DNA of 64,000 nt, from NCBI GenBank assembly GCA_026417895.1, contig JAOACJ010000016.1:20015-84014 (forward strand), written 5' to 3'. The notes under the pieces were generated by a model. The model did not search any database, was not told the origin of the DNA, and was given only the letters and a program-made list of their open reading frames with translations. This document shows positions 942 to 56,301 of the stretch, one piece after another. Both the position numbers and the translations under genes were made by a program. Each line of letters starts with the position of its first letter. Within the stretch, counting starts at the first letter, position 1. This DNA is from Patescibacteria group bacterium (GTDB taxonomy: Bacteria > Patescibacteriota > Patescibacteriia > UBA2591 > CALHIP01).

Positions 942-950
942 ATCTTGCGT

Positions 951-1499: not shown

Positions 1500-1591
1500 A
1501 GGGCAAAAAGAGAATGTTGGGCGTAAGGTTAAATTTAATTTTGAATTTTGGATTAGATTTTGAGGTCTTCATTTTGGATTTTAAATTTTAG

Positions 1592-2161
1592 CTACTGCCA
1601 AACAACTCTGTCGACTTTCCACTCTTCTCCTTCTTTAATTATTTTTAATTCTAGGGTCTGATAAAAGACCCTGGCTGGCTGGTTGTCTTTGACTTCTTCT
1701 CTCTGTGTCGAAATGAGATATTCGGCTTGATTTTCAGAAAAACTTTTTTCCTCAACATTTAAAACTTTTGTTGTAATTCCATAAAACTCTTTAATTGTTT
1801 CTCTCTCTTTCTGACGAATGTAATTTTCTGTTTCTTGCCAGAGACGCACTGACATTTCATTTTTTAAATCTTTTAAGTTTTGGAAATTGACATCGGTAGA
1901 AAAAGAACCATATCTTTCAACAAAATTCCGCGCCTTCAATTTTAGTTCATTTTTCAATAAAGTTAATTTTTCCTCTTCGGTTAATTCTCTGGACGGTGTA
2001 ATTTCTTGATTAAGTATTAATTCTTGATTCGTGACAGGAGGCGCTTGATTAAAAGCTGGTTGTTGAATGTTTGTCGCTGGACTTTGACGCTGACTCGAAA
2101 GAAAAAACAAGATTCCACCCAGAGCAATCAAGATAACGATAATGATAATAACTTTCTTCAT
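1592..2161 (-). CDS. hypothetical N-terminally anchored protein; possible VirB8-like bitopic component
   Basis: 189 aa. N-terminal TM (VIIIIVILIALGGILFFL) followed by a roughly 150-aa soluble domain. Its position immediately downstream of VirB4 matches the bitopic VirB8/TcpC-like architecture. No diagnostic motif was seen. Confidence 0.35.
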   Translation of the reverse strand: MKKVIIIIVILIALGGILFFLSSQRQSPATNIQQPAFNQAPPVTNQELILNQEITPSRELTEEEKLTLLKNELKLKARNFVERYGSFSTDVNFQNLKDLKNEMSVRLWQETENYIRQKERETIKEFYGITTKVLNVEEKSFSENQAEYLISTQREEVKDNQPARVFYQTLELKIIKEGEEWKVDRVVWQ

Positions 2162-5068: not shown

Positions 5069-5500
5069 TTACTCTTCCCTGGCTAAGCCACCGGTATCAA
5101 CTAAAATTGATAGATCAGAAAGCCGACCCCGCGGTAAAGTTTTCTTAATTTCTGGCGGCGCTTCTTCTTTTTCTTTTTTAAGAACGATTTCTTTTTCGGG
5201 AATGATCTCTTTTCTCCAAACCCGAACTTTTGGCCTTTGAAAAAATTGTATAAGATTTAATAAAAAATAGTGAAAGGGGCGACCATTAATTTTGACAAAA
5301 GTAAAAGAACCAAAAAATGGACAAATAACAAAAAGAAAAACAACGACAAAAATCCAAAAATCTAAGAGCTTAAAACAAAGAAAGGTTATACCTCCAGCAA
5401 AAATCAAAAGAATAAACTGACGTGGCGTGATCGGTCCAATAATTTTTGGCTCAATATCAATAAATTGTGGAACAACAAACTGCATATTCGCTTTGCTCAA
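5069..5500 (-). CDS. PrgI/VirB3-like small membrane protein
   Basis: 143 aa. The motif GPITPRQFILLIFAGGITFLCF followed by a second TM helix fits the PrgI-family two-helix proteins (gpLTlrQ motif) that precede VirB4 in Gram-positive T4SS. Confidence 0.5.
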   Translation of the reverse strand: MSKANMQFVVPQFIDIEPKIIGPITPRQFILLIFAGGITFLCFKLLDFWIFVVVFLFVICPFFGSFTFVKINGRPFHYFLLNLIQFFQRPKVRVWRKEIIPEKEIVLKKEKEEAPPEIKKTLPRGRLSDLSILVDTGGLAREE

Positions 5501-8371: not shown

Positions 8372-8416
8372 TTATTAAATCCCAAAACTCAGGCATTGGT
8401 CATTGAAGGTTAAATT

Positions 8417-9340
8417 TTAAAGATTATTTGAAGTTTGTGATTTGGTGTTTGGATTCTGAGAAAATGTTTCACTTTTTTCCTCTTCAAGGTATTTTTTTTC
8501 GAGAGGGTTCGGTTTCATTGAACGTTCTTCGGGCCCTGTTCGATCTTCTTGTTCTGTCTCTTCATTTTTTTCAATTAAAGTGGGCTTGCTCCAAGGCGGA
8601 ACTTCTTCAATGGGCGGCAAAGAGACAATGGTCTCGCCTTGCGAAATAACAAATATTGTCTTTTCTGGCCAATAAACGATAAGGTCTTGAGAATAGGCAC
8701 TAGGAAAAAGAGAGCAGGTGTTAACATAATCATAAATTTTAATCAATTCTTCAATTTTCTCTTTTTCTTGAGGGGAAAGTGAATTGATGTTTGGACTATT
8801 AGTTAAATACTCTGTTCTAGCTAAAGCTCGGTCCGGTTTTTTTTCCAATCTTGTCTCGTAATCAATAAGCCAATTTTTAATAGTCGGGGGGAATGTTCCT
8901 CCTTTTTCTAAAACAATTGGCCGCTTAGTGATAACATTTTCATTTTCTTTCAAAGCCTTGCTTATCTCCATTCTTAAAAGTTCATGTTCGATAAAAGGAA
9001 GTTGGCTAAATTTATAACGAATCAGATCAAATGGTCGAAGGGAATCAAAGGGGAAATTAAGTAGAACCTTAAAATGTTCTTTAATCAGTCTTACTATTTC
9101 TTCTCTATTCAAAAAACCAATAGCGATAAATTCGAGTTGAGGAATAATTTCCTTATAAACTTCTCTTAAAGAAGGATCTTCAGCTGTCTTTTCTTTAATT
9201 TTTTGAGAAAGTAAAAAGGCATCCCTTGAATTGAAACGTCTGATCATTTCGTTAATCTCTTTTTTTAATTCTTCAATAAAAGAAGGGGTTTTCAATTGGA
9301 GAGAGGAAATTGTTGTTAAATCTAACATAGAAATAGACAA
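8417..9340 (-). CDS. hypothetical protein
   Basis: 307-aa ORF in the operon, soluble, no motif recognised. Confidence 0.5.
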   Translation of the reverse strand: MSISMLDLTTISSLQLKTPSFIEELKKEINEMIRRFNSRDAFLLSQKIKEKTAEDPSLREVYKEIIPQLEFIAIGFLNREEIVRLIKEHFKVLLNFPFDSLRPFDLIRYKFSQLPFIEHELLRMEISKALKENENVITKRPIVLEKGGTFPPTIKNWLIDYETRLEKKPDRALARTEYLTNSPNINSLSPQEKEKIEELIKIYDYVNTCSLFPSAYSQDLIVYWPEKTIFVISQGETIVSLPPIEEVPPWSKPTLIEKNEETEQEDRTGPEERSMKPNPLEKKYLEEEKSETFSQNPNTKSQTSNNL

Positions 9341-9361: not shown

Positions 9362-12300
9362 CTAGGTAACAAAGCGAGCTGCTTTTAATCTAGCCATATA
9401 TGCTTTCATGGCCTCAACTTGTTTTAAGACATCCTGAATAGTAGGCAAATAAGGGCTGATAAATTTATATGGTTGAGCCATCATTTGAGCGATTAAATTA
9501 TTAAAATCTTTTTGAAACTCTAAAGAAGCAGTAAGTTTAGAAATAACATCATCTCTCATTTCATTTGGACGTTCAAAAAATGACTTTTCGGCATTAACCA
9601 AGAAAGCAATATTCAAAGGATTAAGACCCCTCATATTGCCATACATATCTTCTGTAGCAAAAAGCCCAGGATGGGCCCGTTGATACATCATCCGCTGAGA
9701 CATATTTTTGACTTTACCTACTATCTCATTAATTGTTTCCTGGCTAAGAGTGATGTCGAAATTTCCTTTCTGATCAATGTACATTCTGAAAGGAGAAAAT
9801 TCTAATTTTCCTCTCACTGGATTAAGTCTTGAAATAGCATAACCCATATGAGGGGCTCCATGTTCTAAACTGATCATCCCAATCATATTAGCAATTTTCG
9901 CTGCCACACCCTCATCTTTAGCTGCCATTAAAGAGATATTTTTCACCATTTCTCGTATAAAAACAGGGTTCACCTCTCCTTTAGTTTTAGCTGTTCTGAT
10001 TAACTCTTCAATTTTTTCAGGCGTTATGGTGACTGGTTCAGTTTTCCCTGTTTTTTCATTAAAAACTTCGACTGTTTTCCCTAAATAATCTTGAGCCAAA
10101 AATTTCTTTAAATAAGGGGTAAATTTTTCTACCCAATCTCCTTTGAAAAGCTCATTTAAGTCATTGTTTTCCGCTAAAATCATAAGAGCAGCATTGGCTC
10201 GCGGCATATCGTTTCCTTTTAAAGCTGATTCAAGTTCATTTAAAGTAGCGTGGGTTTCTCCTAAAGTTTTGTTCTGTAATTCTTCTTTCTCTTCTAAAAC
10301 TCTTCTCATTATTTCATTACCTTTAAAATCGGTTTGGTCTTTTCCCCAAGAAACCCACAAATTCATCAAGTCATGCAATTTACCCAATCGATCTGCTTCT
10401 CTTTTTCTGGTTCGACGAGCATTAAAATTCTGGATATCTTTTAGAAGAGCATCAAGGTCAAAAATAGGAATGTCAGGTGTTGCTTCTAAAGTAGCCGCAA
10501 CATAACTTAATGGCAAGGTTATTTTTTCTGCTGCCCATTTGAATGCATCTTTACCAATCTGTTTTAAGACCTCTTCAGTTGTCATAGCTTTGGGTGGAAT
10601 CAATTCAATTTGAGTTAAAAGTTTTGTCTTAAGACTTGCCCCTTCTTGCTCACTGAGTTTATTTTCTTTCATTAATTGTTCAAGAATGCTTCCTATTTGT
10701 TCTTTGACCTTTCGTCTATCCGTTAAAGAAATCTGACCAACTTTTAAATGAGGATCGATAATATTTTCAATTTGTTCAAAACTCTGACTTATTGCAGTTA
10801 AATTTGGATCTGCCTGATGAGCTTTTTTGATCTGATCAAGTTCATATTTAACTCCACCTCTTACGCCCCCACTAAAACGCGCGAGTTCTGCTTTAGAAAG
10901 AGGAGTAAAAATGGGAATATGTTTGGATAGTAAAATTTCTATTTGTTCTTTTTCTTGATCGGTAAACGATTTCTTCTGAGGAAGTTTCTCGGCGCCCGGC
11001 AATCTTCGTTGCGACATTTTACCTAAAAACTGATCAATAAGATCTTGAACTTCTTTTTGCGGTGCCCCACCTGCCCTCATAATTTCTTCTATTCTCCTTT
11101 TTATACCACTCTGATTAAATGCCCCTAGTTGGGCGTTGATTTCTTTTTCACTTAATCCTTTTCTAGTAAGCATACTTCTCAAAGCGCCAACTATCTCATT
11201 TATTTTTTCGACTACTTGTTCATTTTTCAAACCTTCGATGGTTTTGATATCTTTATCTATATTATCCTTTAATTTTTCTTTTTGTGTCGTCTCTAAATTA
11301 CTGCTCTCAACAATCTTTTTTATCTGATTTTTTTCATCTGTCGTCCATCCGCCGTTTGTTCCTAATCTACTCTTTAAATTTTCTATCGATTGCCAGTCTT
11401 GCTCAGAAACCGCTCCTTTTAATAAATCCATTCCTTCGGTAACGGTCAAATCCTTTTCACCTTTCAGCTTAGCAAACTTAGCGGCCGTTTTTTTAACAAA
11501 AGCTGGAATTGGAGTTACCGACGCTTTCTCTGCCCATCCTTTCCATACATCAGCCACCCCTTTTCCTCCTTTTGTCAATAATGCTAAGGGGGTTTTAACA
11601 ATAGCAGCGGCTAAATCAGTTGTAACTGGTCTAAAGGCTCTCATCGTTCTATCTTTTAACCCTTCTAACCTCCTGGCTGTCCATTTTGCTGCTTTTGTCG
11701 CACTTTTCTGTAAAAAGCTAATTCCTTTACCGGCTAAACTGGCCCCGGCCACACCGAGCTGTTGGGCGGCAACAAGGGCACCAATTAGCATGCCAATACC
11801 TAAAGCAAAACTGGCTAAAACATTAGATTGTCCAGAAACAGTTGGGCCAACATTGACTTTTCCTGGCTGTAAACCCATTCCTGTCGTGGGGTTTAAATTG
11901 CCTTGTTGCACAGCATAAAAGGCAAACCACAAAAAGAAAGCGAGAACCGGACCGACAATGACCTGATTAAAAAATTTATCCTGCCATTGTTTAGCGTATT
12001 TTTGACCACCAGGAATAACAAAACAAATAAAAGCTAAAGGAGAAAGAACAATCATAATCCAGAGGGCTATGATTCTCATAATTAAAAGAGCTAGAATAAT
12101 AAAGGTGACAACGAGAGCAACAAACATCATAATACAAGCTAAAATCCATGCCCAAACTTTGTTCCAATCGTTAACTGTTACCGTAATCTCTTCACCTAAA
12201 TCACCGAAAGTTTTCAGACCAAGAATTTCAGATAGGTTTCCGGACGCTATATCTTTAAAAGCATTAACAAAAGAAAGCATGATCACCTGGGCAAAATCAA

Positions 12301-12703
12301 TAACCAAACCGCAAATCATTTTGGAAAAATTGACTAAAACGGCCATGAGCAAAACCGGAGCGAGAAGGGTTTTATAAGAATACTTTTCAATTTTCAAAAC
12401 CGTAGCAAAGGCAATAACTAAGAGCATCAAGATAAAAAACATATTGGCCAAATCACGAAGAATCTCCCAGCCTTTATTAACGGCACTTGTTCTAAGAAAA
12501 TTATTGTATTGGGCAATGCCGGTAATCCAATCAATAGTCCAGGTAACAAAAATACCCAAAAATCTAGCAATTGTCTCAAAAATTTTTGAAATGGCATCTT
12601 CAATAAAGCCAGCGAAGGTCGGTTGAACAATTAAAAAAATCCCTGTCAAAACAAAAATCAGACAGCCAAAAGTCAGCCAATTTTTTTTCTTTTTTAAATT
12701 CAT
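9362..12703 (-). CDS. VirB6/TrbL-like polytopic membrane protein with large C-terminal soluble, coiled-coil-rich domain
   Basis: 1113 aa. At least six hydrophobic helices in the first 330 aa or so, with Trp/Phe-rich loops as in TrbL/VirB6 pore proteins. A long Lys/Glu-rich helical C-terminal region follows. Located downstream of the giant protein and upstream of VirB4. Confidence 0.55.
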   Translation of the reverse strand: MNLKKKKNWLTFGCLIFVLTGIFLIVQPTFAGFIEDAISKIFETIARFLGIFVTWTIDWITGIAQYNNFLRTSAVNKGWEILRDLANMFFILMLLVIAFATVLKIEKYSYKTLLAPVLLMAVLVNFSKMICGLVIDFAQVIMLSFVNAFKDIASGNLSEILGLKTFGDLGEEITVTVNDWNKVWAWILACIMMFVALVVTFIILALLIMRIIALWIMIVLSPLAFICFVIPGGQKYAKQWQDKFFNQVIVGPVLAFFLWFAFYAVQQGNLNPTTGMGLQPGKVNVGPTVSGQSNVLASFALGIGMLIGALVAAQQLGVAGASLAGKGISFLQKSATKAAKWTARRLEGLKDRTMRAFRPVTTDLAAAIVKTPLALLTKGGKGVADVWKGWAEKASVTPIPAFVKKTAAKFAKLKGEKDLTVTEGMDLLKGAVSEQDWQSIENLKSRLGTNGGWTTDEKNQIKKIVESSNLETTQKEKLKDNIDKDIKTIEGLKNEQVVEKINEIVGALRSMLTRKGLSEKEINAQLGAFNQSGIKRRIEEIMRAGGAPQKEVQDLIDQFLGKMSQRRLPGAEKLPQKKSFTDQEKEQIEILLSKHIPIFTPLSKAELARFSGGVRGGVKYELDQIKKAHQADPNLTAISQSFEQIENIIDPHLKVGQISLTDRRKVKEQIGSILEQLMKENKLSEQEGASLKTKLLTQIELIPPKAMTTEEVLKQIGKDAFKWAAEKITLPLSYVAATLEATPDIPIFDLDALLKDIQNFNARRTRKREADRLGKLHDLMNLWVSWGKDQTDFKGNEIMRRVLEEKEELQNKTLGETHATLNELESALKGNDMPRANAALMILAENNDLNELFKGDWVEKFTPYLKKFLAQDYLGKTVEVFNEKTGKTEPVTITPEKIEELIRTAKTKGEVNPVFIREMVKNISLMAAKDEGVAAKIANMIGMISLEHGAPHMGYAISRLNPVRGKLEFSPFRMYIDQKGNFDITLSQETINEIVGKVKNMSQRMMYQRAHPGLFATEDMYGNMRGLNPLNIAFLVNAEKSFFERPNEMRDDVISKLTASLEFQKDFNNLIAQMMAQPYKFISPYLPTIQDVLKQVEAMKAYMARLKAARFVT

Positions 12704-12740: not shown

Positions 12741-15700
12741 TTATGGATTAAGAATAATCTGCCCGTCGTAGGGAACGCCGAAATTCGCTGGCGTAGACGT
12801 CCCTGGATTGCCGTCTGGATCAAGACAAGAGAAATCACCAGCATATGGTGTTGTTGGTGTTGAAGCTGAATGGGCACACCAACCCCAATTATCCTTAACA
12901 TAGACCTTAGGTTGATAGGAACAACCATTCGGATTAGTACAGAGATAGGTATGAACAAATTCCCAATATTGATTTAAACAAGCATCTGGATCATCACCAA
13001 AAGAAAGAGGTAATCCATCTGTACCTTTTTTGCAAACTGGTTTTCTGTTTTTAGTAATCATATTTGAAGAACCGCTTCGAAAACCATCGCCCCAGTCAAC
13101 GACAACTTCGCGTACCGGCATATAAGCTCCGTCTGCCCAGGCATAAAATCTTAAAGTGGCGGTATAAGTTTTACCGGAAATTAAGATGTTGCCACTCTCT
13201 TGATTACCAATAGTAATTTTGCCAACAGTTCCGCCGGCCGGGACGCCGGTACTAAAATTAACTGATTGGATTTGTGGCGACCTATCAGTAGGATGGAGGG
13301 AAGTATCGCTTCTTGAATCCCAATTATTCGCTATATTACCCGGAAGATAACTCAAGGTATTAACATCAAGATAAGACCAGGCATATGATTTAGGGAACAG
13401 TTTTTTTATGACAGCATCAGAGTCGTAAATCCCACCACTATAAAGATGACAAACTTCACCTTTGGAATCAATAATGTATTTTTTAGGCATTGTCCCTTGA
13501 AAACCGGTGGCGCCCCTCGGCAGACATTCATAACTGTAATCTAAAATGTCAGTCAGATTTCCATAAGGCACGTCTGTCCCTGGTTTCAGTTTGACTAAGT
13601 TGGTATTAACAACCGTTGGTAAATAAGGTTTATCATTAATTTTAACTAATTTGTTCGCCGCTTCTTTTAAAATAATTCTTATGCCGGTCAAGGCAGCAGC
13701 CCCATGACCAGCATCATCATCATTAAATTCAACTTTAAAACCTTTTAATTCCCCTTCTTTCTGATCAAAAATGGTTTGGACAAATAATCTTGCTTCACCA
13801 TTTCCTTTGCCGGTAACTTCTTTTTCATATTTCTTTTCTTTAGTCGCCGGATCTTCATAAGGAAGGATAATTGTCCCTTGGTAGTCTGCACCAAACTTAC
13901 AATCCCCAGGATTACTTTTATCTATCTTCCAATCAATTTCTATCCGATCAATCATATATTCATAAATTTTGCGATCTAAATAATAAAAATTATTTCCACT
14001 TTTGGCAAAATAAGAGGAGGAATAAAGATAAATAGCTTGAGATGGGCTACCTTTCCGTTGATCACCGCGGAAACAAGAAGCCATTTCTTTATCTGTTCCA
14101 TCACATGCCCATTGTCTGGTAACACTTCCGTCCCTTTTTAATTCCTCACTGGAAAAGCCTAAATAATCTTGACAACAACCCCGACTATTATTATTTGAAT
14201 CTTTTCTCCAACAAGACGCTCCTTCTGCCACATTAATCTCAGAGGCCGGTGCGAGATAAGCCTTAATTGGCAAATTAGCCCCACTTTTTAAGTGTAAATT
14301 AATTGTATAAATAATTGCCCCCCCCCACCCAGAGCCGTCTTCGTTAAATTCAAGATGAAAATTTCTTAAATAATTTTCCTGATCAAATTCAGCCTGAATA
14401 AAAAGACAGGATTTATTTTTATCCGGACATTCGTCGGCAAGACATGCCCCCCCCACTGGACAGGTTCCATTACTCTTGCAAACATAACCACTAGAATTTT
14501 GATGCGTAGCGTGTAAATAAGCTGCTCTTTTAAAATTATTTGGCCCAAGTTCTAAATCAAACGGTCCACAGCATTTATTACTACTACTGCAATCCACTGT
14601 GTTTAAATCCGAACAGGTAGTATTTTCCCAGCGAAACTTAGCCTTGACAATAATTTTTTGAATCTCTTCTCTTTTAATTTTTCTTTCTAAATAAGGAATG
14701 TACTTAGCTTGAAGAATGGTTCCTTCTCCGCCCTCCGCCAAAAAACAATAACCTAGATCTGTTTCTCCATAATTGGTGTACTCGGAACATTTATTACCAT
14801 AATCACCCCCTAAATATAAAGGTTGAATCAAACGATCAGCAAAACAGCCCCAATTTCCACCCAATCTTTGACCCGGAAAACTAGAAGTCAGATTAAAACC
14901 GAGAGGGAAAAAAGTTGGTGCAAAACCGGAAATCTCAGCCGGACGGGTATATCTTTCATAGCCATACCATCTTCGATCCGAAGATGGAAAATAACCAGCA
15001 CTGCGGACTTGGTTATAAGAATCTAAACCAGTTTCGACTTCACCGGGAAACCAGGTTAAACAAGCCTGTATTTCTTTTGGTTTTTCTAAATCCGGCTCTA
15101 AGCAATAGCCAGCTAAACCAATGTAATCAGTAATTTTTTTCATTGGCTCACATTTACCCTGATTATTTTTTCTTCCCTCATCAGTCCGTGTACAATCCTC
15201 ACGAAAAGCAACGGCCATCCCATTCGGACAAGGAGGTGAACAACATTTACCTAAATCTTGAGGATTTTCCGCCTGGGTACAAACTTTAATTGATTCAACG
15301 TCCGTTTCTAAATTAAAATAATAGGTTGGCTCGCCTAAAACTGATTCTGCTTTTCGGTACGAACAAAGACAATTATTTCCCCCTCTTTCGGTACATAAAT
15401 TTAGACCGCGATAAGTTCCTTCTACTTCGCGAGAAAAAGGAGAGGTATTTTCTGGATAAAGTTTGCAGGTTGGGGAGACAACACATTTACTCTGATAACA
15501 AACTTGTCCTTTTGGACAATCTTCATTCCGAGTACAAGTTCTATTACCAACGCCGTAATCAGTGGTTCCGCTCAGATAACTTAAAGCATAACCATTCGGA
15601 TAATTTTTGGGTCTTAACATCTCCACCGGATAAAAATTGTAAAGAGAATAGCCGGAATAATCCATACCCGTCCAACCGAAATCGCGATTTTTGTATTTTT

Positions 15701-18700
15701 GTTCAGTCAAAACTTCTGGTGTCTCTGTCGAAACTAAGGTACATTGAGCACCGCTACCTTCACCAGTTTGTTTTTGACATCTTAAGAAATAGTCACAAAT
15801 TTCTAAAAATCGTTGTTGATTCTCCTGCCAAACATATCTTTTTCCTGCACAATAAAGCCATTCACCGCAAACACGATCGCGACGGACTTTAAGAATTAAA
15901 TTAGTGTCATTAGTATTTTGGCCTAAAGCATAACAGTAACGGCAATAATCGGTATTGGCAAAATTAGAATTTGTACAATTATCATCAGAATTAACAGGAT
16001 TTCCTTGTCCATCTACTGGCCAAGGTTTTTTCGTACAATCAATTGGCGAAACAAGTCGGTGCTGATTAGCCTCACTTTTAGCATAAGTGGCAATAGAATT
16101 ATAAATGGCACTTGGATCATTTTGGGCTTTAAATAAAACACAGCCTTCTTTTAAAGAAACCTGGCCACGACAAGAAGCTTTATCTAATTGATTGTTGTCT
16201 AAATAGTAATAAGGATCTAAAGGTTTAAATTCAATATCATCAAAATAAACTTCGCCAAAAGCCTCACAACATCTCCAAGGACAATTGGGACAATTTTGGA
16301 TGGTGGTACAATCGCCAGCGTTTGTCTTAGAACAGCCACCATGCCAATAAGCCGGAGCTAGAAGGGGAATAATTTTAATTTCTTCAATGGCTAAATTTTT
16401 CGGATTTAAAGGACCTCCCGCCACGACTCTTAAAGACCTTTTTTGCCAACTAGTAATGGTCGTTGAAGCATCAATGCTAGCCCCGATTTCATAACCATGT
16501 TCATAATTCCAAGGCCAATGGTTTAGATTGTCACCCCAGGGGTTTCCGCCATTTTTAATCAAAAAAGCAATACATTCTTTAAGATTGCCACGGTTAAATT
16601 TACATTTGGGCTGACCGGAAATATTACATTGATTATTACTCCAATTTCCGCCAACCCAACTACAGCACGATTGAGAAGAACCACAATGATTTTTATATTC
16701 TTGCCAATCTTGACACTCTTCGGTTTGACAACCATTTAATTGAGTTACACCTCGCCAGCCTTCGTATTTTAAATTCACATGCCCAGATGGATAAGAAAGG
16801 TGAGAGGTAGAAACAACCTTGACTTTAAAATTCAAAACAAAACTTTTTTGATTTTTATGAGGTATTTCAACAATCTGAGAGGCGGCGTATATTTTTCGCG
16901 TGTCTGCACCCACAGTATGTGGCGTATCGTTAGCTATTTTAAGTGATTTACTGGCGCCGTCCCAACTCACAGTAGATGAATTGCCGCTGTAGCCGTAAGA
17001 CCAATTTGGGGCTGGCCCCTGACCACTACTTCCACTACCAATTTCAAAATCACCATTCTGGACATAATTAGTCACGCCGGCCGTTCTTAGTGGTTCAATA
17101 TATTCTGTACAACCAGCAAATCTTTCTTCACATTCACCAACCAAGCCTTGATAGCCGCTTTCCTCGGAAAATTTAATGCCATAAGTCACCCCATCCGGTA
17201 AATAATTCGTATAGCAAGGCTGATCAGTGCCTTTCTTAAACCAGCCGGTTCTGTATTCACTGCCAATCGGCACTTTTTCTCGCCAAACACAAATTTTTTC
17301 ACCAGGATCTTTGAAATAAACTTTGCCCGCCGCGGCTTGTTCAAACTCTTCACAGTTTTGCTGATGATAACGACAGAGAATTGGTCGACGGGTATATAAA
17401 TCAGGGTTATTTTTTAAATAAAAATCTGTCCAGGAAATTGGCTCACCTTGAGAAAGGTTGGGTAAACCAAATTTCTGACAACCTTTATCGCCAGCCGGAC
17501 AGGCTTTGGTCTGATCAACAACTAAATAGGTTAATTGATCAGCTGGGACTAAAACATTATCTTTTGGCTCGTCGGGATCAGTCAAGTTAAATGTTTCTGA
17601 AAATGGTGAGGTGGAGTTTTTTGTCTCAATTAAAGCTTCGCAGCCAATTTTGATTTCCGGACAGAGTTTAGAAAATGATCTAAAGAAATGAGATTGATTG
17701 GCTCGGTCTCTGTATTCAGCACAACCTAAATGATAGCCAGGCGCAGAAGCGCCAGTTAAATCCTGATCACAAACAGTTGGTGTTTGCCAAGAATTTTTAA
17801 TAGCAAAGATATTTTGTCGGACTTCTTTTAAGGTGATGTTGTCGAGATAGAAGGGAGAAGAAGATAATATTACTAATCTTTCATCATTAGCAACCTCTCG
17901 CTGGAAATAAACTGGTCCGACAGTGAATGAATACCACTCACCAGTAGTCAAAGCAGGCAGAGAAGGGAAGTCTATGTTATTGTCATTGCCTCTAAATCGT
18001 ATGGTAAGAGTGGTGGAATTATTACTGGCTCTTTTTACCCAGAAGGAAAGTAAATACGACCTTCCTTTTTGGACTAAATCCTGAACTGGCCTAGAGACAG
18101 AATTATTATTGTTGGCAACTCTCATTGACCGACCGCCAAAATAGATTGATTCCGAAGAAAGTTCACCGTCGATCCAGGGTTCAACGGTTAAACTTTCAAA
18201 ATCATCTTCAAAAAGAATTCTTAGATTATTAGCCGCATTGCCTTGATACTCACGACAACCAACATTTACCGAAGAACATCTTTCTCCTTCTGCTGGAATA
18301 GCCATATAGGTACAGATTCCATTATTAAATTCAACTCCGTTTAAAGCAAGACCACCTTGAGTGCTCGTCGGGCAATAACCGCTGATCACGGTTGTCGTCT
18401 TTCTTAGGGGCACACAAGTCTCGGAACAGGTAATAGTATTTTTATAGAGTTTATAAGAAACATGGCCATTAGCATCATAAAATTCTTTACAATGAGGATT
18501 GGTCCGAGCATCTTGAGAATTTTGACACCTGCCCCAAAGGGCTTGAGCATTGTTAGAAGACAACATTTCGTCTGGCTCAAAACCATTAGTTGTTGTCTTG
18601 GCTAAAAGATAATATCTTTTTAATTGATAACCTGTCGTCTCTGAACCAATCCAGGTATAGAAGTATTGACACTCAGCTCTTGGTTTTTGACAGGGTCTGA

Positions 18701-21700
18701 GATAAGAATAGTATTCTCTTCCTTCACCACCGCGATTGACGACATCTAAATTTGTAAATTCTTCACAACCAACTTCGGAGGCCGGACAGATTCGAACCGT
18801 CCGTGGAATAAAATAAGCATCTTCTTCACTATAAAAATGCGTTGGTTTTTGTTTAAAGACTTCATAGCCAACACACTCTCTTGGACAACGATCAGTATCT
18901 CTCGCCACGGCTGGCAGATAGGGCCCACCTAAAACTGGTGTATATTTTTCACAACCAACTTCATCTTGTTGACAAGCTAAAGCATAATCAGCACAGGCAT
19001 GATCATCGTCATTGGTAATTAAATTTCCATTGTTATCGCGGTTGTAACATTTCATCCAATCTGGCGCCTTTTTTAAATAAATTTTATTCGTGCTGGCATA
19101 AGATTTATAAGATGAGAGTGAGCCAACTTCTAATTGTAAATCATCAAGATAAATGCCTGTTCCATTAACAGCAATTTCTAAATCAATAATTTTTTTATTA
19201 TTTGGAGCGATAAAATCTGTTGAAACCCTTTGCCAAGGTGTATTTTTAGAAATAGGAATAATTTTTGTAACGCTATTGTTAATCTTGACTTGAATTTCTC
19301 GATCATTACTTTGATCTTTATTTTTCACCCAGAAAGAAAGGGTATATTTTGTCCCTGGTAAAAGAGAAATATCAACGTTGTCAGTGGAAGCCAACTCTAC
19401 TTTACCGCTACCAGTAAATTTAGCCGAAACTTTACCGGATTTAGCTTCGGCTTCATCAACAAGAAATTGACCACTGGTTATTTGCCAACCCTTCACTAAA
19501 ATAGTCGGGGTCGTAGTCGTACTTGTTTCAGAATAATCTTCAAAGCTCGAATTGGGTAATAAATTGGTGCCTAAATTTTCTTTGGTCCGGATAAATTCGG
19601 AACAACCCTCAGAAGTAGCCGGGCAGGTTTCAACAAATTTATTAAAGAAGATGGTGTTAAAGGGATCAGACACAGAACGGGGACTACCAACTGATCCGTT
19701 TGGCTGGATATTTAAAGATTGGTTCGGTTCAGTACAAATCCAACCACCTGCCCCTTCGGCAAAGTCTTTATTCCATCTCTGACAATACCACTGACAACCA
19801 ACCGAGTTCGCATCGCAGTCACCAAAATCTAAAGTATTTTTTAACCAGGCAAATCTTTGATTATCTTTAGTTCGGGTATAAAGTTGACAAGTATTATAAT
19901 AAGCCGGACATTGAGTGCCGGCCAAGCGCCAAATATTTTTTTCGCGGGTACAATAGCCGTAAGTATGACAGGTGCCATCTTCATTTTCGCCAACACAATC
20001 CTTCATCTCTATACAAGTCTCTTGGCGTTCATTAGAAGCAGGCAAGGGAATAGCCGAATAAGCCATTAAATTACATTGCATTGAGGGTAATTTCAAAACC
20101 CAATTCGGATCAACTAAATGACAGAAAGGTGAAGCCGAAACAAGACATTGTCCATCTTTTTTACAACAGTTAGCACTTGAGTCCCAACTACCTATACTTC
20201 CTTCACATTTTTTTTCTGTCGTATTTGACTTCGGGTCCCCTTGGACATAAATTGTACAATCGCCATCAGAACTAACTTTGTCAAAACCTTCAACAATTTG
20301 AGCCAAAGTAAACTTGGCATCGCCAAAATCACCCCGGCTAATTTTCTCAGCAGCAATTTCTAAGCCTAAAGGAATAACTCGTGCCCGACGAAGTTTTTTT
20401 AGGTTGGTTAAAGAATAACGAGAGGAAAAATCACGCGCCCCATCAGTCAGACCATAACTACCGACATACCAGTTACCATGTAAATAATTTTTCTCAATTG
20501 CTTCTTTAATAGTTAAATTTTCTTCAATAGCCCGGGCAAAACCGCCGTCAATGACGCAATTATAAGGCAAAGCATATTTTGTTTCCGTTGGACAAGCTGC
20601 AAATTCCTCTAAAAGATTTATCTCACCAGATGGTTTTTTAAAGCTTACAGTTTTTAAATCAGCATAAATGGCCTCAATTTTTTCTTGGGTAGGAGAAGCC
20701 GGAATCCCACCCTCCCAACTTGTTCGACCACTTGGACTAGCTTCAGGATTAAGACCTTCTTTTTGAAATAACCTTTCAAGAAATTTAGAAAAAAATGTCT
20801 GAATAAATGTATTTGCCACATCAGCAACCAAAACACCAGTGTAAACTTTAAGTGACGCTTTCCCTTCAGCAATCATCTGTCGAGCTCTTTCTTCGGTTAA
20901 ACCAGCTGGTAAAAGCGCTTTACCAGAAATTTTAGAGGTAACTGACTGAAATTGGCCCTGAAGAGATTGGAAAAATTTATCCGCACCAACTTTTTCAGCC
21001 GCCTTACTTAAAATACCTGATTTGAGACTCATGGCCACGCCAAGATCACTTCCTTCCGGCGTGAAGGTTTTTTGAATATCTTCTAAAATGTTCAAGTCTG
21101 GTGAGGGAGTTCCTTTTTCCACTGCTTCTCTTGCCTCATCAACCATTTTTTCTAAAGTGGTTGCCCATTCAGAGAGTTGAGAGGCATAATTTTGTGCCCT
21201 TTTAATTGCTTCAAAACAATAGCTATAATTATTTTGACATTGAGTAGCATTATTAATACCTGGACAAGCACCGTTATAGCAATTAGGGTTTTGACAAAAT
21301 TCTTCTTGTGATTTATTAAGACAACGAACCGGTGCCTCAATTGGTCTGTATCCATCACTGGTCCATTTTCTTCCCAACCACCAGTTGAGACTTGTCTGAA
21401 AAGTTGGTGGTCCTTGAGTAATGGCTTTCAACCTTTCTTTTATAGTGGAGAGACTATTAAGTACACCGGAAATATTCGGCGGACCTATCTTTTTTGATTC
21501 TTGTAGATACTTATCCCACTCAGTTAAAAAGAGCTGCTGATGTCCAGAAAGTTGATCCGCAATATTGATTAAATTACTTTTGTTAACATCGTAAAGTTTC
21601 GTATCAATCCTAATCGCATTTTTAATCTTAACCTGAACTTGGGGCGGCTGACCTGGAACATATTCGACATTCACATAACCTTTCAATCCTTCTTTATACT

Positions 21701-22256
21701 GAGCAATGAGTTTTTCTTTCGCCTCTCTTATCCTTTCTTTCATCTTCGAAATAGGGCAACGTGCCTCATATTCAAAAGGAATTTTTGGCGGCTTTACAAA
21801 TAAGAGAATATTCAGTTTTATTGTCGGATCAATCGGATCACAAAGGCTTTGGAGACCAAAACCTTTAGTCGCCACTTCATCTAAAAGATCACCGACAACA
21901 GAATCAGCCATTTTGTTCCAGTATTCTTTGTCGGTAAAAAACATTGGTTTGCCAGCTTTACCGCCAGTGGCCAGCCAAGTAGCTGATTCGGTGACAAATT
22001 TTTGGGCAAAACCTTCAAGAAAGCTTTTATAAAGAATGGCTATTACCTGATATTTTACCTTGTCATAAATCCTAATAGCTTGACTTTTTATCCATTCTAA
22101 AACCCGGGGAATATCACCGACGGTTGTGGAAGCTCCTTGAGCATATGCTGGTTTCGGCCAAAATAAAAGAGGAGTAAGTAGGGAGAAAATCATTACTCCG
22201 AGTAAAAAACTGATGATAATTTTTCGAAGATGTTTTTTCATTTTCCCTTTTTTCAA
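12741..22256 (-). CDS. giant secreted cysteine-rich surface protein with three CBM_4_9-like carbohydrate-binding modules
   Basis: 3171-aa uninterrupted ORF. N-terminal signal peptide (…LLTPLLFWPKPAYAQG), very many Cys in CxxC / CC / C-x-n-C arrangements, no TM after the signal. Three modules carry the CBM_4_9 signature (N..FE…W…G..Y.LSFWVK…YLDD): around LLPGTKYTLSFWVKNKDQ…IYLDDLQLEV, QKGRSYLLSFWVKRASNN…FYLDNITLKEV and NGDFEIGSG…VYFDDIEFKP. Confidence 0.8.
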   Translation of the reverse strand: MKKGKMKKHLRKIIISFLLGVMIFSLLTPLLFWPKPAYAQGASTTVGDIPRVLEWIKSQAIRIYDKVKYQVIAILYKSFLEGFAQKFVTESATWLATGGKAGKPMFFTDKEYWNKMADSVVGDLLDEVATKGFGLQSLCDPIDPTIKLNILLFVKPPKIPFEYEARCPISKMKERIREAKEKLIAQYKEGLKGYVNVEYVPGQPPQVQVKIKNAIRIDTKLYDVNKSNLINIADQLSGHQQLFLTEWDKYLQESKKIGPPNISGVLNSLSTIKERLKAITQGPPTFQTSLNWWLGRKWTSDGYRPIEAPVRCLNKSQEEFCQNPNCYNGACPGINNATQCQNNYSYCFEAIKRAQNYASQLSEWATTLEKMVDEAREAVEKGTPSPDLNILEDIQKTFTPEGSDLGVAMSLKSGILSKAAEKVGADKFFQSLQGQFQSVTSKISGKALLPAGLTEERARQMIAEGKASLKVYTGVLVADVANTFIQTFFSKFLERLFQKEGLNPEASPSGRTSWEGGIPASPTQEKIEAIYADLKTVSFKKPSGEINLLEEFAACPTETKYALPYNCVIDGGFARAIEENLTIKEAIEKNYLHGNWYVGSYGLTDGARDFSSRYSLTNLKKLRRARVIPLGLEIAAEKISRGDFGDAKFTLAQIVEGFDKVSSDGDCTIYVQGDPKSNTTEKKCEGSIGSWDSSANCCKKDGQCLVSASPFCHLVDPNWVLKLPSMQCNLMAYSAIPLPASNERQETCIEMKDCVGENEDGTCHTYGYCTREKNIWRLAGTQCPAYYNTCQLYTRTKDNQRFAWLKNTLDFGDCDANSVGCQWYCQRWNKDFAEGAGGWICTEPNQSLNIQPNGSVGSPRSVSDPFNTIFFNKFVETCPATSEGCSEFIRTKENLGTNLLPNSSFEDYSETSTTTTPTILVKGWQITSGQFLVDEAEAKSGKVSAKFTGSGKVELASTDNVDISLLPGTKYTLSFWVKNKDQSNDREIQVKINNSVTKIIPISKNTPWQRVSTDFIAPNNKKIIDLEIAVNGTGIYLDDLQLEVGSLSSYKSYASTNKIYLKKAPDWMKCYNRDNNGNLITNDDDHACADYALACQQDEVGCEKYTPVLGGPYLPAVARDTDRCPRECVGYEVFKQKPTHFYSEEDAYFIPRTVRICPASEVGCEEFTNLDVVNRGGEGREYYSYLRPCQKPRAECQYFYTWIGSETTGYQLKRYYLLAKTTTNGFEPDEMLSSNNAQALWGRCQNSQDARTNPHCKEFYDANGHVSYKLYKNTITCSETCVPLRKTTTVISGYCPTSTQGGLALNGVEFNNGICTYMAIPAEGERCSSVNVGCREYQGNAANNLRILFEDDFESLTVEPWIDGELSSESIYFGGRSMRVANNNNSVSRPVQDLVQKGRSYLLSFWVKRASNNSTTLTIRFRGNDNNIDFPSLPALTTGEWYSFTVGPVYFQREVANDERLVILSSSPFYLDNITLKEVRQNIFAIKNSWQTPTVCDQDLTGASAPGYHLGCAEYRDRANQSHFFRSFSKLCPEIKIGCEALIETKNSTSPFSETFNLTDPDEPKDNVLVPADQLTYLVVDQTKACPAGDKGCQKFGLPNLSQGEPISWTDFYLKNNPDLYTRRPILCRYHQQNCEEFEQAAAGKVYFKDPGEKICVWREKVPIGSEYRTGWFKKGTDQPCYTNYLPDGVTYGIKFSEESGYQGLVGECEERFAGCTEYIEPLRTAGVTNYVQNGDFEIGSGSSGQGPAPNWSYGYSGNSSTVSWDGASKSLKIANDTPHTVGADTRKIYAASQIVEIPHKNQKSFVLNFKVKVVSTSHLSYPSGHVNLKYEGWRGVTQLNGCQTEECQDWQEYKNHCGSSQSCCSWVGGNWSNNQCNISGQPKCKFNRGNLKECIAFLIKNGGNPWGDNLNHWPWNYEHGYEIGASIDASTTITSWQKRSLRVVAGGPLNPKNLAIEEIKIIPLLAPAYWHGGCSKTNAGDCTTIQNCPNCPWRCCEAFGEVYFDDIEFKPLDPYYYLDNNQLDKASCRGQVSLKEGCVLFKAQNDPSAIYNSIATYAKSEANQHRLVSPIDCTKKPWPVDGQGNPVNSDDNCTNSNFANTDYCRYCYALGQNTNDTNLILKVRRDRVCGEWLYCAGKRYVWQENQQRFLEICDYFLRCQKQTGEGSGAQCTLVSTETPEVLTEQKYKNRDFGWTGMDYSGYSLYNFYPVEMLRPKNYPNGYALSYLSGTTDYGVGNRTCTRNEDCPKGQVCYQSKCVVSPTCKLYPENTSPFSREVEGTYRGLNLCTERGGNNCLCSYRKAESVLGEPTYYFNLETDVESIKVCTQAENPQDLGKCCSPPCPNGMAVAFREDCTRTDEGRKNNQGKCEPMKKITDYIGLAGYCLEPDLEKPKEIQACLTWFPGEVETGLDSYNQVRSAGYFPSSDRRWYGYERYTRPAEISGFAPTFFPLGFNLTSSFPGQRLGGNWGCFADRLIQPLYLGGDYGNKCSEYTNYGETDLGYCFLAEGGEGTILQAKYIPYLERKIKREEIQKIIVKAKFRWENTTCSDLNTVDCSSSNKCCGPFDLELGPNNFKRAAYLHATHQNSSGYVCKSNGTCPVGGACLADECPDKNKSCLFIQAEFDQENYLRNFHLEFNEDGSGWGGAIIYTINLHLKSGANLPIKAYLAPASEINVAEGASCWRKDSNNNSRGCCQDYLGFSSEELKRDGSVTRQWACDGTDKEMASCFRGDQRKGSPSQAIYLYSSSYFAKSGNNFYYLDRKIYEYMIDRIEIDWKIDKSNPGDCKFGADYQGTIILPYEDPATKEKKYEKEVTGKGNGEARLFVQTIFDQKEGELKGFKVEFNDDDAGHGAAALTGIRIILKEAANKLVKINDKPYLPTVVNTNLVKLKPGTDVPYGNLTDILDYSYECLPRGATGFQGTMPKKYIIDSKGEVCHLYSGGIYDSDAVIKKLFPKSYAWSYLDVNTLSYLPGNIANNWDSRSDTSLHPTDRSPQIQSVNFSTGVPAGGTVGKITIGNQESGNILISGKTYTATLRFYAWADGAYMPVREVVVDWGDGFRSGSSNMITKNRKPVCKKGTDGLPLSFGDDPDACLNQYWEFVHTYLCTNPNGCSYQPKVYVKDNWGWCAHSASTPTTPYAGDFSCLDPDGNPGTSTPANFGVPYDGQIILNP

Positions 22257-22262: not shown

Positions 22263-23021
22263 TTATTTTTGTGCTTCTTTTACGGCTTGTAAAAACAGGT
22301 TTTTTAAGGTGGCATCATCAATTTGATCGAGAGTAGTTTTGTCCGCTCCGACCGAAAGCATCAACTGCCGAATAGTCGCTGGATCCAAATTTTCAAAACC
22401 AGTTAAATTTTCAGCAAAGGGTTGGTTAGTGGGAGGTGTATTAGTTATTGATAAATTGATCAATTTTTGCTGTTCAGCGATAATTTTAGAAAAATCTAAT
22501 TTGCCTAATCCGCTTGATAATTGTTTTTTTAACTCCTCAGGATCAATGCCTGTCTCTTGGATAGTTTCATTATACAACTTTTTTAGAGTTTCGTCATCAA
22601 CCTTGTCTAGGGTTTCTTTAGGTAGACCAGCTTGAATTAATATCTCTTTAATTTCCTCAACTGTTAGTTCTTTCTTTTCTTCTATTTTGGACCCCTCGGC
22701 AACTTTTTTCAAGGGGGTTGATTTGGGATTTAGAGGGTCAGAACCAGCCTCAATTTCTTCTTTGTCGGGATAATTATCAGAATCTGAATCGGATAGGTAA
22801 ATTGAGGTTTTATATTTAAAAACCTCATCAACATCAGAAAGACCATCTTTATCCGTGTCCCTCTGGGCTAATAAAGACTGAATTTCTTCATTAGTTAATT
22901 TATTTTCGTATTTTGGCACTCGAAACGGTCCTTGAATTGACTCTTTAATTCTAAAAAAGCCAAAAAAAAGGGTAAAAATAGCTAAAAGAGCTAAGCCAAT
23001 TAAAGGACCATGATTTTTCAT
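22263..23021 (-). CDS. membrane-anchored protein with Ca-binding-like Asp-rich loops and an internal duplicated helical motif
   Basis: 252 aa. N-terminal TM LIGLALLAIFTLFFGFF. DTDKDGLSDVDE and DSDSDNYPDKEE resemble thrombospondin-type-3 / dockerin-like calcium loops. There are two copies of ..AG..K.TLD..DD.TLK.L... The start overlaps the ksgA stop by 2 nt. Confidence 0.5.
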   Translation of the reverse strand: MKNHGPLIGLALLAIFTLFFGFFRIKESIQGPFRVPKYENKLTNEEIQSLLAQRDTDKDGLSDVDEVFKYKTSIYLSDSDSDNYPDKEEIEAGSDPLNPKSTPLKKVAEGSKIEEKKELTVEEIKEILIQAGLPKETLDKVDDETLKKLYNETIQETGIDPEELKKQLSSGLGKLDFSKIIAEQQKLINLSITNTPPTNQPFAENLTGFENLDPATIRQLMLSVGADKTTLDQIDDATLKNLFLQAVKEAQK

Positions 23022-56297: not shown

Positions 56298-56301
56298 ATA
56301 T

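Follow-up and report, generated by a model that had tools for sequence, protein, structure and literature searches.

A giant cysteine-rich protein encoded in a Patescibacteria type IV secretion gene cluster, a candidate host-recognition component

The window analysed here, a 64,000-nt stretch of a Patescibacteria contig, contains a single gene of about 9.5 kb lying beside genes for a type IV secretion system (T4SS), which raises the question of what so large a product does there and whether it belongs to the secretion apparatus at all. Patescibacteria account for a large part of bacterial diversity, and their host relationships are mostly unknown. T4SSs are widespread among them, and in the one cultivated species examined by Tn-seq epibiotic growth depends on the T4SS (PMC10633639, PMC11665869), and their function in this group has been called 'completely unknown' (PMC11665869). 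A 2025 survey reported that relaxases are missing from most of these clusters and detected no adhesins (PMC12102498), and the family to which the giant belongs goes without mention in the published surveys consulted. The answer that we favour, with moderate confidence, is that the giant would be an extracellular host-recognition component of a chromosomal, conjugation-derived MPF-FATA-like T4SS found in a large clade of the Parcubacteria group.

The open reading frame runs without interruption on the minus strand (12741..22256, 3,171 codons from a TTG), so that the single unbroken 9.5-kb ORF of the original prediction stands. The length of 3171 aa that was given with it holds from the TTG; the start is most likely the ATG at 22241, because the 3,166-aa version is the same as a protein deposited at NCBI (P0001, 100% identity and coverage). 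The N-terminus has the layout of a signal peptide, MKKHLRK-hydrophobic-AYA/QG, the hydrophobic segment at residues 8-26 is the only one in the protein, and no LPxTG or NPxTG sortase motif occurs in its sequence. Judged by these features the giant, of about 350 kDa as estimated from its length, is a Sec-exported protein without a membrane anchor, as had been proposed, and without a sortase anchor. A chimeric mis-assembly, which had been raised as a possible undoing of the whole idea, is rejected, since relatives are collinear with the giant over residues 2-3166 and the gene contains no DNA repeats. Targeting by a diversity-generating retroelement is rejected as well, as neither template/variable repeat pairs nor tandem repeats were found in or near the gene.

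Nor is the giant an idiosyncratic adhesin of one genome. The look-up of orthologs and their lengths that had been suggested showed its N-terminal region to be common to 1,397 cluster representatives at E<=1e-3 (1,122 at E<=1e-30), nearly all of them 2,400-3,600 aa long. The median length of 158 family sequences is 2,716 aa and their median Cys content 3.7%, and 342 giant loci were counted among species-representative genomes. Sequence comparison thus places the giant in a large family with conserved length and cysteine content. Many of the related contigs carry titles that imply a gammaproteobacterial origin; we reject this origin, as their LeuRS is 45-62% identical to that of the window, like the LeuRS of contigs labelled Falkowbacteria and similar.

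Within the giant, 126 residues are Cys (3.98%, vs 0.79% for the remaining ORFs of 200 aa or more in the window), and this enrichment of about 5-fold makes the earlier wording of an 'extremely' cysteine-rich protein a generous one. The dense pairing described at the same time is borne out: 51 Cys, most of them paired at i/i+6-7, are kept in 80% or more of 123 relatives, and the giant is probably a disulfide-stapled extracellular protein. DsbA-like genes adjoin the T4SS genes in two loci (L084 and L085) and are present in 24 of 83 locus flanks; no DsbA-like ORF was found in this window. The parts of the giant and the genes of its cluster are collected in Table 1.

Table 1. Features of the giant gene and its cluster; positions are those of the window.
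Feature	Residues	Positions	Strand	Remarks
Giant gene	1-3166	12741..22241	(-)	3,166 aa from ATG; stop codon 12741-12743; alternative TTG start 22256
Sec-type signal peptide, AYA/QG cleavage motif	1-35	22137..22241	(-)	A-x-A motif kept in relatives
Helical N-terminal region (predicted)	36-550	20592..22136	(-)	Conserved ends, motif ATGGKGQKPLF
Hypervariable coiled-coil-like insert of N-terminal region	~150-350		(-)	Low-confidence model
Small helical domain and insert	551-700	20142..20591	(-)	Small conserved helical domain (551-660), then variable Cys-containing insert
D0	701-892	19566..20141	(-)	Conserved cysteine-rich beta domain; C-terminal end is first C-x5-GC-x-E-F/Y motif
CBM_4_9 module 1	893-1040	19122..19565	(-)	No Cys; hypervariable across family
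D1	1041-1337	18231..19121	(-)	Cysteine-rich, beta-rich; related to D0 and D2; most conserved part of giant
CBM_4_9 module 2	1338-1485	17787..18230	(-)	No Cys; moderately conserved family-wide, swapped among close relatives
D2	1486-1723	17073..17786	(-)	Conserved cysteine-rich beta domain; four C-x6-C motifs
M3	1724-2005	16227..17072	(-)	Divergent CBM-like; two Cys-rich insertions; hypervariable; no Pfam match
D3	2006-2420	14982..16226	(-)	Conserved cysteine-rich region, 27 Cys; unrelated to D0-D2
Main hypervariable region	2421-2960	13362..14981	(-)	Segment differing most between near-identical relatives; Cys-rich
C-terminal domain	2961-3166	12744..13361	(-)	Conserved; PKD-like signature IDWGDG ... 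H-x-Y ... DNWGWC
TSP3 protein		22263..23021	(-)	252 aa; one N-terminal TM helix, TSP3-type calcium-binding repeats; directly upstream of giant
VirB6-like		9362..12703	(-)	1,113 aa; 6-7 TM helices in first 320 aa, then long hydrophilic tail
Two conserved cluster genes		6929..9340	(-)	307 aa and 480 aa; neither with TM helix or Pfam match
PrgI/VirB3-like		5069-5500	(-)	PF12666, 35.8 bits
TrsD-like VirB4 N-terminal homologue		4255-4932	(-)	NF041427, E 5.5e-9
VirB4 ATPase		2336-4249	(-)	NF045971, 344 bits (cut-off 325)
Cluster tail		3..2161	(-)	189-aa single-TM protein, 182-aa two-TM protein, >=313-aa protein

The original prediction named three CBM_4_9-like modules, and two of them fared well against Pfam CBM_4_9 (PF02018, gathering threshold 25.9 bits): module 1 scored 36.2 bits (residues 893-1025) and module 2 scored 32.9 bits (residues ~1342-1423, profile positions 3-96 of 136), while the whole giant scored 50.9 bits over two stretches. 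The same profile is matched by 9 of 11 close relatives, and the NCBIfam GTA_spike_fiber domain also matches module 1. Profile matches thus establish modules 1 and 2 as CBM_4_9 domains, and the structure prediction that had been called for upheld their CBM fold, modelling both as beta jelly rolls. Module 3 did not follow them, as it had no Pfam match at E<=10, either native or with both Cys-rich insertions removed, and so failed the test that the original prediction had set for itself; its CBM-like character is suggested by an HMM built within the family (i-E 1.3e-5 for the giant and 2.2e-7 for the relative P0007) and by hhalign (95% probability over 69 columns, N-terminal half only). The residues kept in the CBM modules, N-x-x-F-E and Y-L-D-D/N, look structural, and the CBM_4_9 fold serves other ligands besides sugars; the modules of the giant may bind glycan. 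They make up about 10% of its length, and the inter-module cysteine-rich domains and the hypervariable region 2421-2960 matter at least as much.

For about 85% of the giant there is no recognisable domain. Pfam searches with nine sub-segments gave no match beyond modules 1 and 2, phmmer against PDB sequences retrieved nothing, a profile search against PDB sequences retrieved CBMs only, plus a weak coiled-coil match, and PHROGs gave a jelly-roll-level match only. At the C-terminus, the signature WGDG ... H-x-Y ... D-N-W-G is apparent in the family alignment; Pfam PKD and PKD_4 did not match the giant's own segment 2961-3166, and among 15 aligned relatives' C-termini PKD_4 matched two (best E 7e-5) and PKD one (6e-4). 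The N-terminal region is predicted to be helical, from an AF2 model of residues 36-890 on an 8-sequence alignment that was poor (pLDDT 47) and was read for secondary-structure tendency only. No VirB5/TraC-type helical protein was matched in Pfam or NCBIfam at the thresholds used, and one relative gave a faint DUF4141 match. A pore-forming toxin, to which Foldseek matches to CDTb, iota-Ib, Vip and Cry had pointed, is rejected: the TM-scores are 0.08-0.24, and what these toxins have in common with the giant is their receptor-binding jelly roll.

Relatives differ from one another in a mosaic manner. Between close relatives the cysteine-rich scaffold is 96-100% identical and four or five discrete modules are only 22-56% identical; in one pair (P0003 and P0004) the scaffold is at 96-100% and four modules are at 26-54%, and in another (P0010 and P0011) the differences are almost confined to residues 2401-2700. 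The hypervariable region 2421-2960 also holds an internal duplicate, with residues ~2613-2660 resembling 2819-2867. Across 123 relatives, by comparison, residues 1151-1200 of D1 keep 58% identity.

The gene order around the giant is conserved as well: TSP3-repeat protein, giant, VirB6-like, two genes, PrgI, TrsD and VirB4 recur in this order across about 80 species-level genomes at 27-45% protein identity, a link to the T4SS far stronger than was first seen. The TSP3 gene lies upstream of the giant in 73 of 75 loci, with a median gap of 13 nt, the VirB6-like gene lies downstream in 52 of 55, and PrgI/TrsD/VirB4 are within reach in 17 of 22. In the reverse direction, starting from VirB6-like homologues, a gene for a protein of 2,690-2,781 aa was found 2-5 kb upstream in all three loci inspected; these genes are giant-sized and were matched by size, and one of them has a faint CBM_4_9 match. 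By homology the giant's surroundings are a Patescibacteria MPF-FATA-like T4SS cluster, with VirB4, TrsD, PrgI/VirB3 and VirB6 homologues together, and the giant, on the same strand and at a fixed position across distant genomes, is a conserved member of it. The VirB6 identity is transitive: the protein itself has no Pfam match, and TrbL_3 was found in several of 120 listed homologues out of 506. The protein of at least 313 aa in the cluster tail, cut by the window edge, has a VirB2-like T4SS_pilin domain, and a LysM-CHAP hydrolase is encoded near the cluster. No relaxase and no VirD4/TcpA coupling protein was found among the window proteins scanned.

The gaps of 37 nt and 21 nt reported downstream of the giant are correct, and no terminator-like site was found in the 37-nt gap between the giant and the VirB6-like gene; spacing suggests an operon. 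The further claim that the giant is co-operonic with VirB6 and VirB4 survives in part, in that the VirB6-like gene does adjoin it and VirB4 is real, but VirB4 follows six genes later, and an AdoHcyase gene intervenes. We would also like to note that the housekeeping genes LeuRS and KsgA are equally persistent neighbours of the giant, so that some of the synteny may stem from a general collinearity around the replication origin and not from function, and that in many relatives the spacing from the giant to the VirB6-like gene is 0.7-3 kb.

The giant may be physically associated with the apparatus and may act as an adhesin. After Sec export, disulfides formed by the conserved i/i+6-7 Cys pairs would stiffen a long, beta-rich stalk, and the conserved helical N-terminal region could anchor the giant at the apparatus by way of the TSP3 protein (a candidate membrane partner), the VirB6-like protein or VirB2-like pilins; that the N-terminal region does the docking is a guess, because its model is poor. 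The binding of glycans or other host surface structures would fall to the jelly-roll modules and to the hypervariable region 2421-2960; it would set host specificity and bring the secretion channel or the pilus into position on the host envelope. Swapping of modules might then retune specificity, as in phage receptor-binding proteins. The original prediction had left it open whether the giant is displayed or delivered by the apparatus; since it carries a Sec signal peptide, delivery by the T4SS is unlikely, and display beside or on the apparatus fits better. Read in this way, the giant is a concrete candidate for how the Patescibacteria T4SS finds and engages its host, heading the cluster in hundreds of species. 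Its invariant scaffold and replaceable modules would amount to a sequence read-out of host specificity that can be mined from metagenomes, and the modules are small enough for expression and glycan arrays, which makes the question experimentally approachable.

A bolder version, to which we attach a low probability, makes the giant a stalk or stylet, stapled by disulfides, that works with a VirB2-like pilus to dock on the host envelope and breach it, after which a VirB4-driven channel would take up host macromolecules, with the swappable modules encoding host range. If this is true, the giant would be a T4SS component of a new class, without counterpart in the systems of Gram-positive or Gram-negative bacteria.

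Among the alternatives to host recognition, the giant could be first of all a structural part of the machine, an extracellular stalk or a pilus base or tip that stands in for VirB5 or for missing outer components and brings the channel through cell wall and S-layer as far as the host, its jelly rolls being secondary. In favour of this, the giant is single-copy, near-universal and fixed in its cluster position, with a strongly conserved scaffold and a rigid, beta-rich, probably disulfide-rich architecture. VirB2-like pilins are present, no homologue of VirB5, VirB8, VirB9 or VirB10 was recognised among the cluster proteins scanned, and Gram-positive systems, according to a review, need an unidentified signal-relaying component (PMC12857230). 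We nevertheless consider this reading unlikely: the giant shows no similarity to known T4SS structural subunits, neither oligomerisation nor a channel-forming region is indicated, and its discrete hypervariable modules fit recognition better than pure structure.

The doubt cast by LeuRS and KsgA leads to another reading, in which the giant is an independent surface protein, a general adhesin or an envelope- or S-layer-associated glycan binder, and its adjacency to the T4SS is conserved origin-proximal gene order only. Giant surface proteins are a general theme of CPR bacteria (PMC8080830), export via Sec would require no T4SS, and the variable gap to the VirB6-like gene at times holds unrelated genes. 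What makes this reading quite improbable in our view is that the order is kept at levels of protein identity at which collinearity is normally lost unless selection maintains it, that the TSP3 gene stays so tightly adjacent, that giant and VirB6-like gene share a strand with no terminator-like site between them here, and that the reverse look-up met a giant-sized upstream gene every time. S-layer proteins are typically cysteine-poor, which counts against the S-layer form of this reading.

We give little credence to a degradative enzyme, that is, a divergent polysaccharide or cell-wall hydrolase that opens the host's or its own envelope for the T4SS and is targeted to its substrate by the CBMs. 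CBM_4_9, CBM22 and CBM16 are normally appended to glycoside hydrolases, the large conserved regions D1, D2 and D3 are without assigned function, and in a cultivated Saccharibacterium essential peptidase and lysozyme homologues adjoin virB4 (PMC12102498), but searches of Pfam, NCBIfam, PHROGs and PDB sequences matched no catalytic family, and the LysM-CHAP hydrolase near the cluster makes a better analogue of VirB1. That the giant is a polymorphic toxin, or a protein that delivers effectors, with region 2421-2960 as its toxin cassette is barely credible. Between near-identical relatives only a single internal region is replaced, which would suit this reading, but the extreme C-terminus is conserved, PKD-like and not variable, no toxin family matched (Ntox1 only, E 1.4), the next gene is VirB6-like and not immunity-like, and the variable region consists of a Cys-rich domain with an internal duplication.

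A host-recognition protein at a T4SS has one of its closest precedents in the LPxTG adhesins of Gram-positive conjugative T4SSs, of the PrgB (aggregation substance) type from pCF10; PrgB itself has 1,305 aa. Similar to the giant, these are large Sec-exported surface proteins encoded in a monoderm-type MPF-FATA T4SS locus, and they bind the partner's cell-envelope polymer to establish contact (PMC12857230). In contrast, the giant is cysteine-rich, about 2.4 times longer, and shares with PrgB neither the LPxTG motif nor a polymer-adhesin (GbpC-type) domain nor any other domain in Pfam or NCBIfam; it is chromosomal and conserved clade-wide where PrgB is plasmid-borne, and the scanned proteins of its T4SS cluster included neither a relaxase nor a coupling protein. 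Southlakia epibionticum likewise has a Patescibacteria T4SS without relaxase and with VirB2-like pilins (Cell 2023, PMC10633639). Its T4SS is essential, as are surface proteins with lectin-like domains that were proposed to bind host glycans (PMC10633639), but, in a comparison made by description, the genes for those adhesins lie outside the T4SS cluster, and no giant gene is reported from that cluster (PMC10633639).

Extracellular giants implicated in host contact, adjoining a secretion or pilus system, are also described from other ultra-small, host-dependent bacteria, namely from Omnitrophota, where their genes neighbour T2SS/T4P-like secretion genes (bioRxiv 10.1101/2023.11.21.568195), and as surface proteins of the CPR predator Vampirococcus (PMC8080830). 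The likeness is one of description, and the partner machine here is instead a VirB4-type T4SS; neither paper mentions cysteine or the giant family (bioRxiv 10.1101/2023.11.21.568195; PMC8080830). Unlike other modules of the CBM_4_9 clan (CBM22, CBM16, CBM4, CBM61), those of the giant are set between cysteine-rich domains and come without a recognisable glycoside hydrolase. Phage receptor-binding and tail proteins with CBM-cenC domains resemble the giant in joining a long scaffold to jelly-roll modules, and in them the modules recognise host envelope saccharides and specificity is changed by module replacement, an analogy that we extend to the giant, even though it is cellular, chromosomal and placed in a secretion-system cluster. 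Overall TM-scores against phage proteins are only about 0.1, so the likeness covers the modules and not the architecture; the best matches in the viral structure library were tail, host-specificity and CBM-cenC proteins, and the PDB matches include 9euf.

Our results are best explained by the giant cysteine-rich protein (hereafter giant) being a Sec-exported extracellular component dedicated to the neighbouring T4SS. An ATG at 22241, five codons inside the TTG-started ORF, gives a 3,166-aa product that is identical over its full length to the deposited protein 'MAG: carbohydrate binding domain-containing protein [Patescibacteria group bacterium]'. Its N-terminus (MKKHLRK, a hydrophobic core, then AYA/QG) is a textbook Sec signal, so delivery by the T4SS itself, one of two options in the original prediction, is unlikely. 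That stretch is the sole hydrophobic segment, and no LPxTG or similar motif was found in the protein, in agreement with the claimed uninterrupted ORF with a signal peptide and no membrane anchor. The claimed cysteine richness was likewise evident, i.e., 126 cysteines (3.98%) vs 0.79% in the remaining ORFs of 200 aa or more in the window. The mis-assembled or chimeric ORF against which the original prediction had cautioned is unsupported, because the gene contains no tandem or dispersed DNA repeats and relatives align collinearly across residues 2-3166.

Three CBM_4_9-like modules had been proposed, and two of these reach Pfam significance. Pfam CBM_4_9 is matched twice in giant; scanned alone, module 1 (893-1040) and module 2 (1338-1485) score 36.2 and 32.9 bits against a cut-off of 25.9, and module 1 additionally matches a phage/GTA head-spike-fibre domain (NCBIfam). 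Module 3 (1724-2005) has no Pfam match, either native or after splicing out its two cysteine-rich insertions. It is nevertheless detected by an HMM built from the relatives' modules 1 and 2 (i-E 1.3e-5 in giant; 2.2e-7, nearly full length, in the relative P0007), and hhalign pairs it with module 1 at 95% probability over the N-terminal half only, compared with 1.6% for an unrelated control segment. Since module 3 is Pfam-negative yet positive in both of these comparisons, giant reads at the sequence level as two CBM_4_9 modules plus one divergent, insertion-bearing relative of them. A jelly-roll fold is predicted for modules 1 and 2. Outside them, giant has no match in Pfam or among PDB sequences, and PHROGs returned nothing beyond the jelly roll.

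The CBM modules contain no cysteine. The regions between them are beta-rich, confidently modelled by AF2 and mutually related (hhalign: 94% for residues 1041-1337 vs 1486-1723, 88% for 701-892 vs 1041-1337), and they hold eight copies of the motif C-x5-[GN]C-x-E-[FY]. Comparison with 123 relatives shows 51 cysteines conserved at the 80% level or above, most of them paired at i/i+6-7, a spacing that would fit hairpin disulfides. The AF2 model of residues 551-1750, built from 26 sequences, has a pLDDT of 78.2 and a pTM of 0.62; most of residues 780-1710 lie at a pLDDT of 80-94. Residues 36-890 were modelled poorly (eight sequences, pLDDT 47); the model suggests that residues 36 to ~550 are helical, in keeping with a weak coiled-coil match in the variable portion of this region. 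A PKD-like signature is present in the last 200 residues; of 15 aligned relatives, two or three reach Pfam PKD or PKD_4, and giant itself does not. Long, low-TM matches to binary toxins, Vip/Cry, reelin and Elapor1 were rejected as shared architecture, as they reflect common jelly-roll or cysteine-rich modules.

Giant and other features of the window
Feature	Coordinates	Strand	Remarks
TSP3 protein	22263-23021	minus	252 aa, single TM, TSP3 calcium-binding repeats; directly upstream of giant, 21-nt gap
Giant	12741..22256	minus	single ORF, 3,171 codons from TTG
1,113-aa protein		minus	6-7 TM helices, long tail; first downstream of giant, 37-nt gap
Two unknowns		minus	307 and 480 aa; next downstream
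AdoHcyase (S-adenosylhomocysteine hydrolase)	5627-6865	minus	between 480-aa unknown and PrgI, inside T4SS cluster
PrgI/VirB3, then TrsD-like		minus	downstream of AdoHcyase
VirB4		minus	downstream of TrsD-like; NF045971, 344 bits
Two small membrane proteins		minus	downstream of VirB4
VirB2-like pilin-domain protein (Pfam T4SS_pilin)	3-941	minus	at least 313 aa; last of T4SS cluster, cut by window edge
LysM-LysM-CHAP peptidoglycan hydrolase	27167-28357	plus	opposite strand, upstream of LeuRS
Putative beta-clamp (dnaN)	40683-41813		read from N-terminal sequence only
Putative gyrA	46896-49343		read from N-terminal sequence only
VirB2-like pilin array (Pfam T4SS_pilin)	55431-58063	plus	four genes

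Both predicted intergenic gaps (37 and 21 nt) were recovered, and the 37-nt gap between giant and the VirB6-like gene, which encodes the 1,113-aa protein, holds no terminator-like site. The VirB6-like protein itself has no Pfam match, and TrbL_3 is carried by several of 120 listed homologues (506 found). Giant is followed by same-strand T4SS genes as predicted, but VirB4 is separated from the VirB6-like gene by five others. The TSP3 protein, which also has repeated 'D-x-(E/A)-T-L-K-x-L' helical segments, may be giant's membrane anchor. The arrangement of the cluster matches the MPF-FATA-like Patescibacteria T4SS (TrsD, PrgI, VirB6, VirB4 and pilins, relaxase usually absent, near KsgA and the origin; PMC12102498), and the pilin genes match pilin arrays reported for these systems. 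In the four-gene array, the leading gene encodes 288 aa with 19 Cys (6.6%) and, besides the pilin domain, a PG_binding_1 domain.

We traced homologues of every cluster protein in the window across 83 related loci. TSP3 lies directly upstream of giant in 73 of 75 testable loci (median gap 13 nt), the VirB6-like gene follows giant in 52 of 55 whose flank is 5 kb or longer, and PrgI, TrsD or VirB4 is present in 17 of 22 whose flank is 9.5 kb or longer. The median gap to the VirB6-like gene is 706 nt; a small extra gene therefore often sits in between, e.g., one for a 206-aa protein in L003. In L001 (19132-22481), the insertion at this place comprises genes for two Kelch/beta-propeller proteins and one 225-aa protein. 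Reverse look-up from three VirB6-like homologues found a giant-sized gene (2,690-2,781 aa) 2-5 kb upstream in each, a candidate family member; one of the three carries a faint CBM_4_9 match. DsbA/thioredoxin-like oxidoreductase genes adjoin T4SS genes in L084 (19072-19863), L085 (19154-19933) and L003 (4048-4794), where radA and recG follow them. Two of the three reverse-look-up loci have such a gene beside the T4SS genes, and a DsbA-like ORF occurs in 24 of 83 locus flanks and nowhere in the window.

A word-indexed search retrieved ten relatives of 2,539-3,113 aa. When a profile of the N-terminal region was searched exhaustively, 1,397 cluster representatives passed E<=1e-3, and 1,122 passed E<=1e-30; with few exceptions they are 2,400-3,600 aa long (medians in a 158-sequence subset: 2,716 aa, 3.7% cysteine). 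A scan taking one genome per species gave 342 giant loci, with titles including Patescibacteria, Falkowbacteria, Kerfeldbacteria, Komeilibacteria and Parcubacteria. Many ENA third-party-assembly contigs with the locus (L006, L009, L011-L013, L015, L016 and others) are titled 'uncultured Gammaproteobacteria bacterium'. We doubt these titles, since the LeuRS sequences on such contigs share 45-62% identity with that of the window, which is also the range on CPR-named contigs such as Falkowbacteria. In L060 and L079 the tblastn match spans ~13.5 kb (10001 to about 23500), which points either to longer proteins of about 4,400-4,600 aa or to genes that are split.

The conserved stretches in 123 full-length relatives are residues 400-890, 1040-1750, 2000-2400 and 3000-3166 (identity peaks at 58% over 1151-1200); the hypervariable ones are 150-350, 650-700, the interior of module 1, 1750-2000 and 2400-2950. 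Closely related pairs differ in a mosaic fashion. The relatives P0003 and P0004 share a 96-100% identical scaffold and are only 26-54% identical at 201-300, 1301-1500 (module 2), 1801-2000 (module 3) and 2401-2600. P0010 and P0011 are 87-100% identical over most of the protein, 22-56% at 2401-2700 and 41% over the first 100 residues. Phage receptor-binding proteins and variable adhesins are built in the same way, with separate exchangeable modules on a constant scaffold, and giant's best matches in a viral structure library are tail, host-specificity and CBM-cenC proteins. Residues 2421-2960 contain an internal duplicate (alignment score 97 vs 34 +/- 6 for shuffles).

We propose that giant would be a disulfide-stapled protein whose conserved N-terminal part docks at the T4SS apparatus, and whose jelly-roll and hypervariable modules may recognise the host surface through glycan binding and confer host specificity. 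That giant is instead a structural stalk or pilus-associated subunit strikes us as rather unlikely. Somewhat less probable still is an unrelated surface protein kept near the T4SS genes by general collinearity, a reading favoured by LeuRS and KsgA being likewise persistent neighbours. A cryptic degradative enzyme is improbable, and a polymorphic toxin scarcely credible.

As a proposed T4SS component, giant may be likened in function to PrgB, the adhesin of Gram-positive conjugation systems, although PrgB's defining features, LPxTG and the polymer-adhesin domain, are missing. No PrgB-like adhesins were detected in Patescibacteria in a 2025 survey (PMC12102498). In a Cell 2023 study (PMC10633639), a perspective from 2024 and a T4SS review of December 2025, the Patescibacteria T4SS is presented as essential, pilin-bearing and of unknown function, and no such giant protein is mentioned. 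Known precedents are giant surface proteins in CPR (PMC8080830) and, in Omnitrophota, giant genes next to secretion systems (bioRxiv 10.1101/2023.11.21.568195). We therefore count the family as a new form of a known theme: it is unrecognised and very widespread, and would provide a major CPR clade with its T4SS-linked host-recognition protein.

The LysM-LysM-CHAP hydrolase, found in the same position in many related loci, may serve the cluster as a VirB1-type enzyme that opens the wall. The cumulative GC-skew minimum falls at about 44-46 kb; if the dnaN and gyrA readings are right, the window probably includes the replication origin, at a distance of about 25-40 kb from the T4SS cluster, which would fit the origin proximity described in PMC12102498. 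Additionally, AdoHcyase lies inside the T4SS cluster in about ten related loci (L003, L019, L025, L065, L068, L070, L073, L076, L081).
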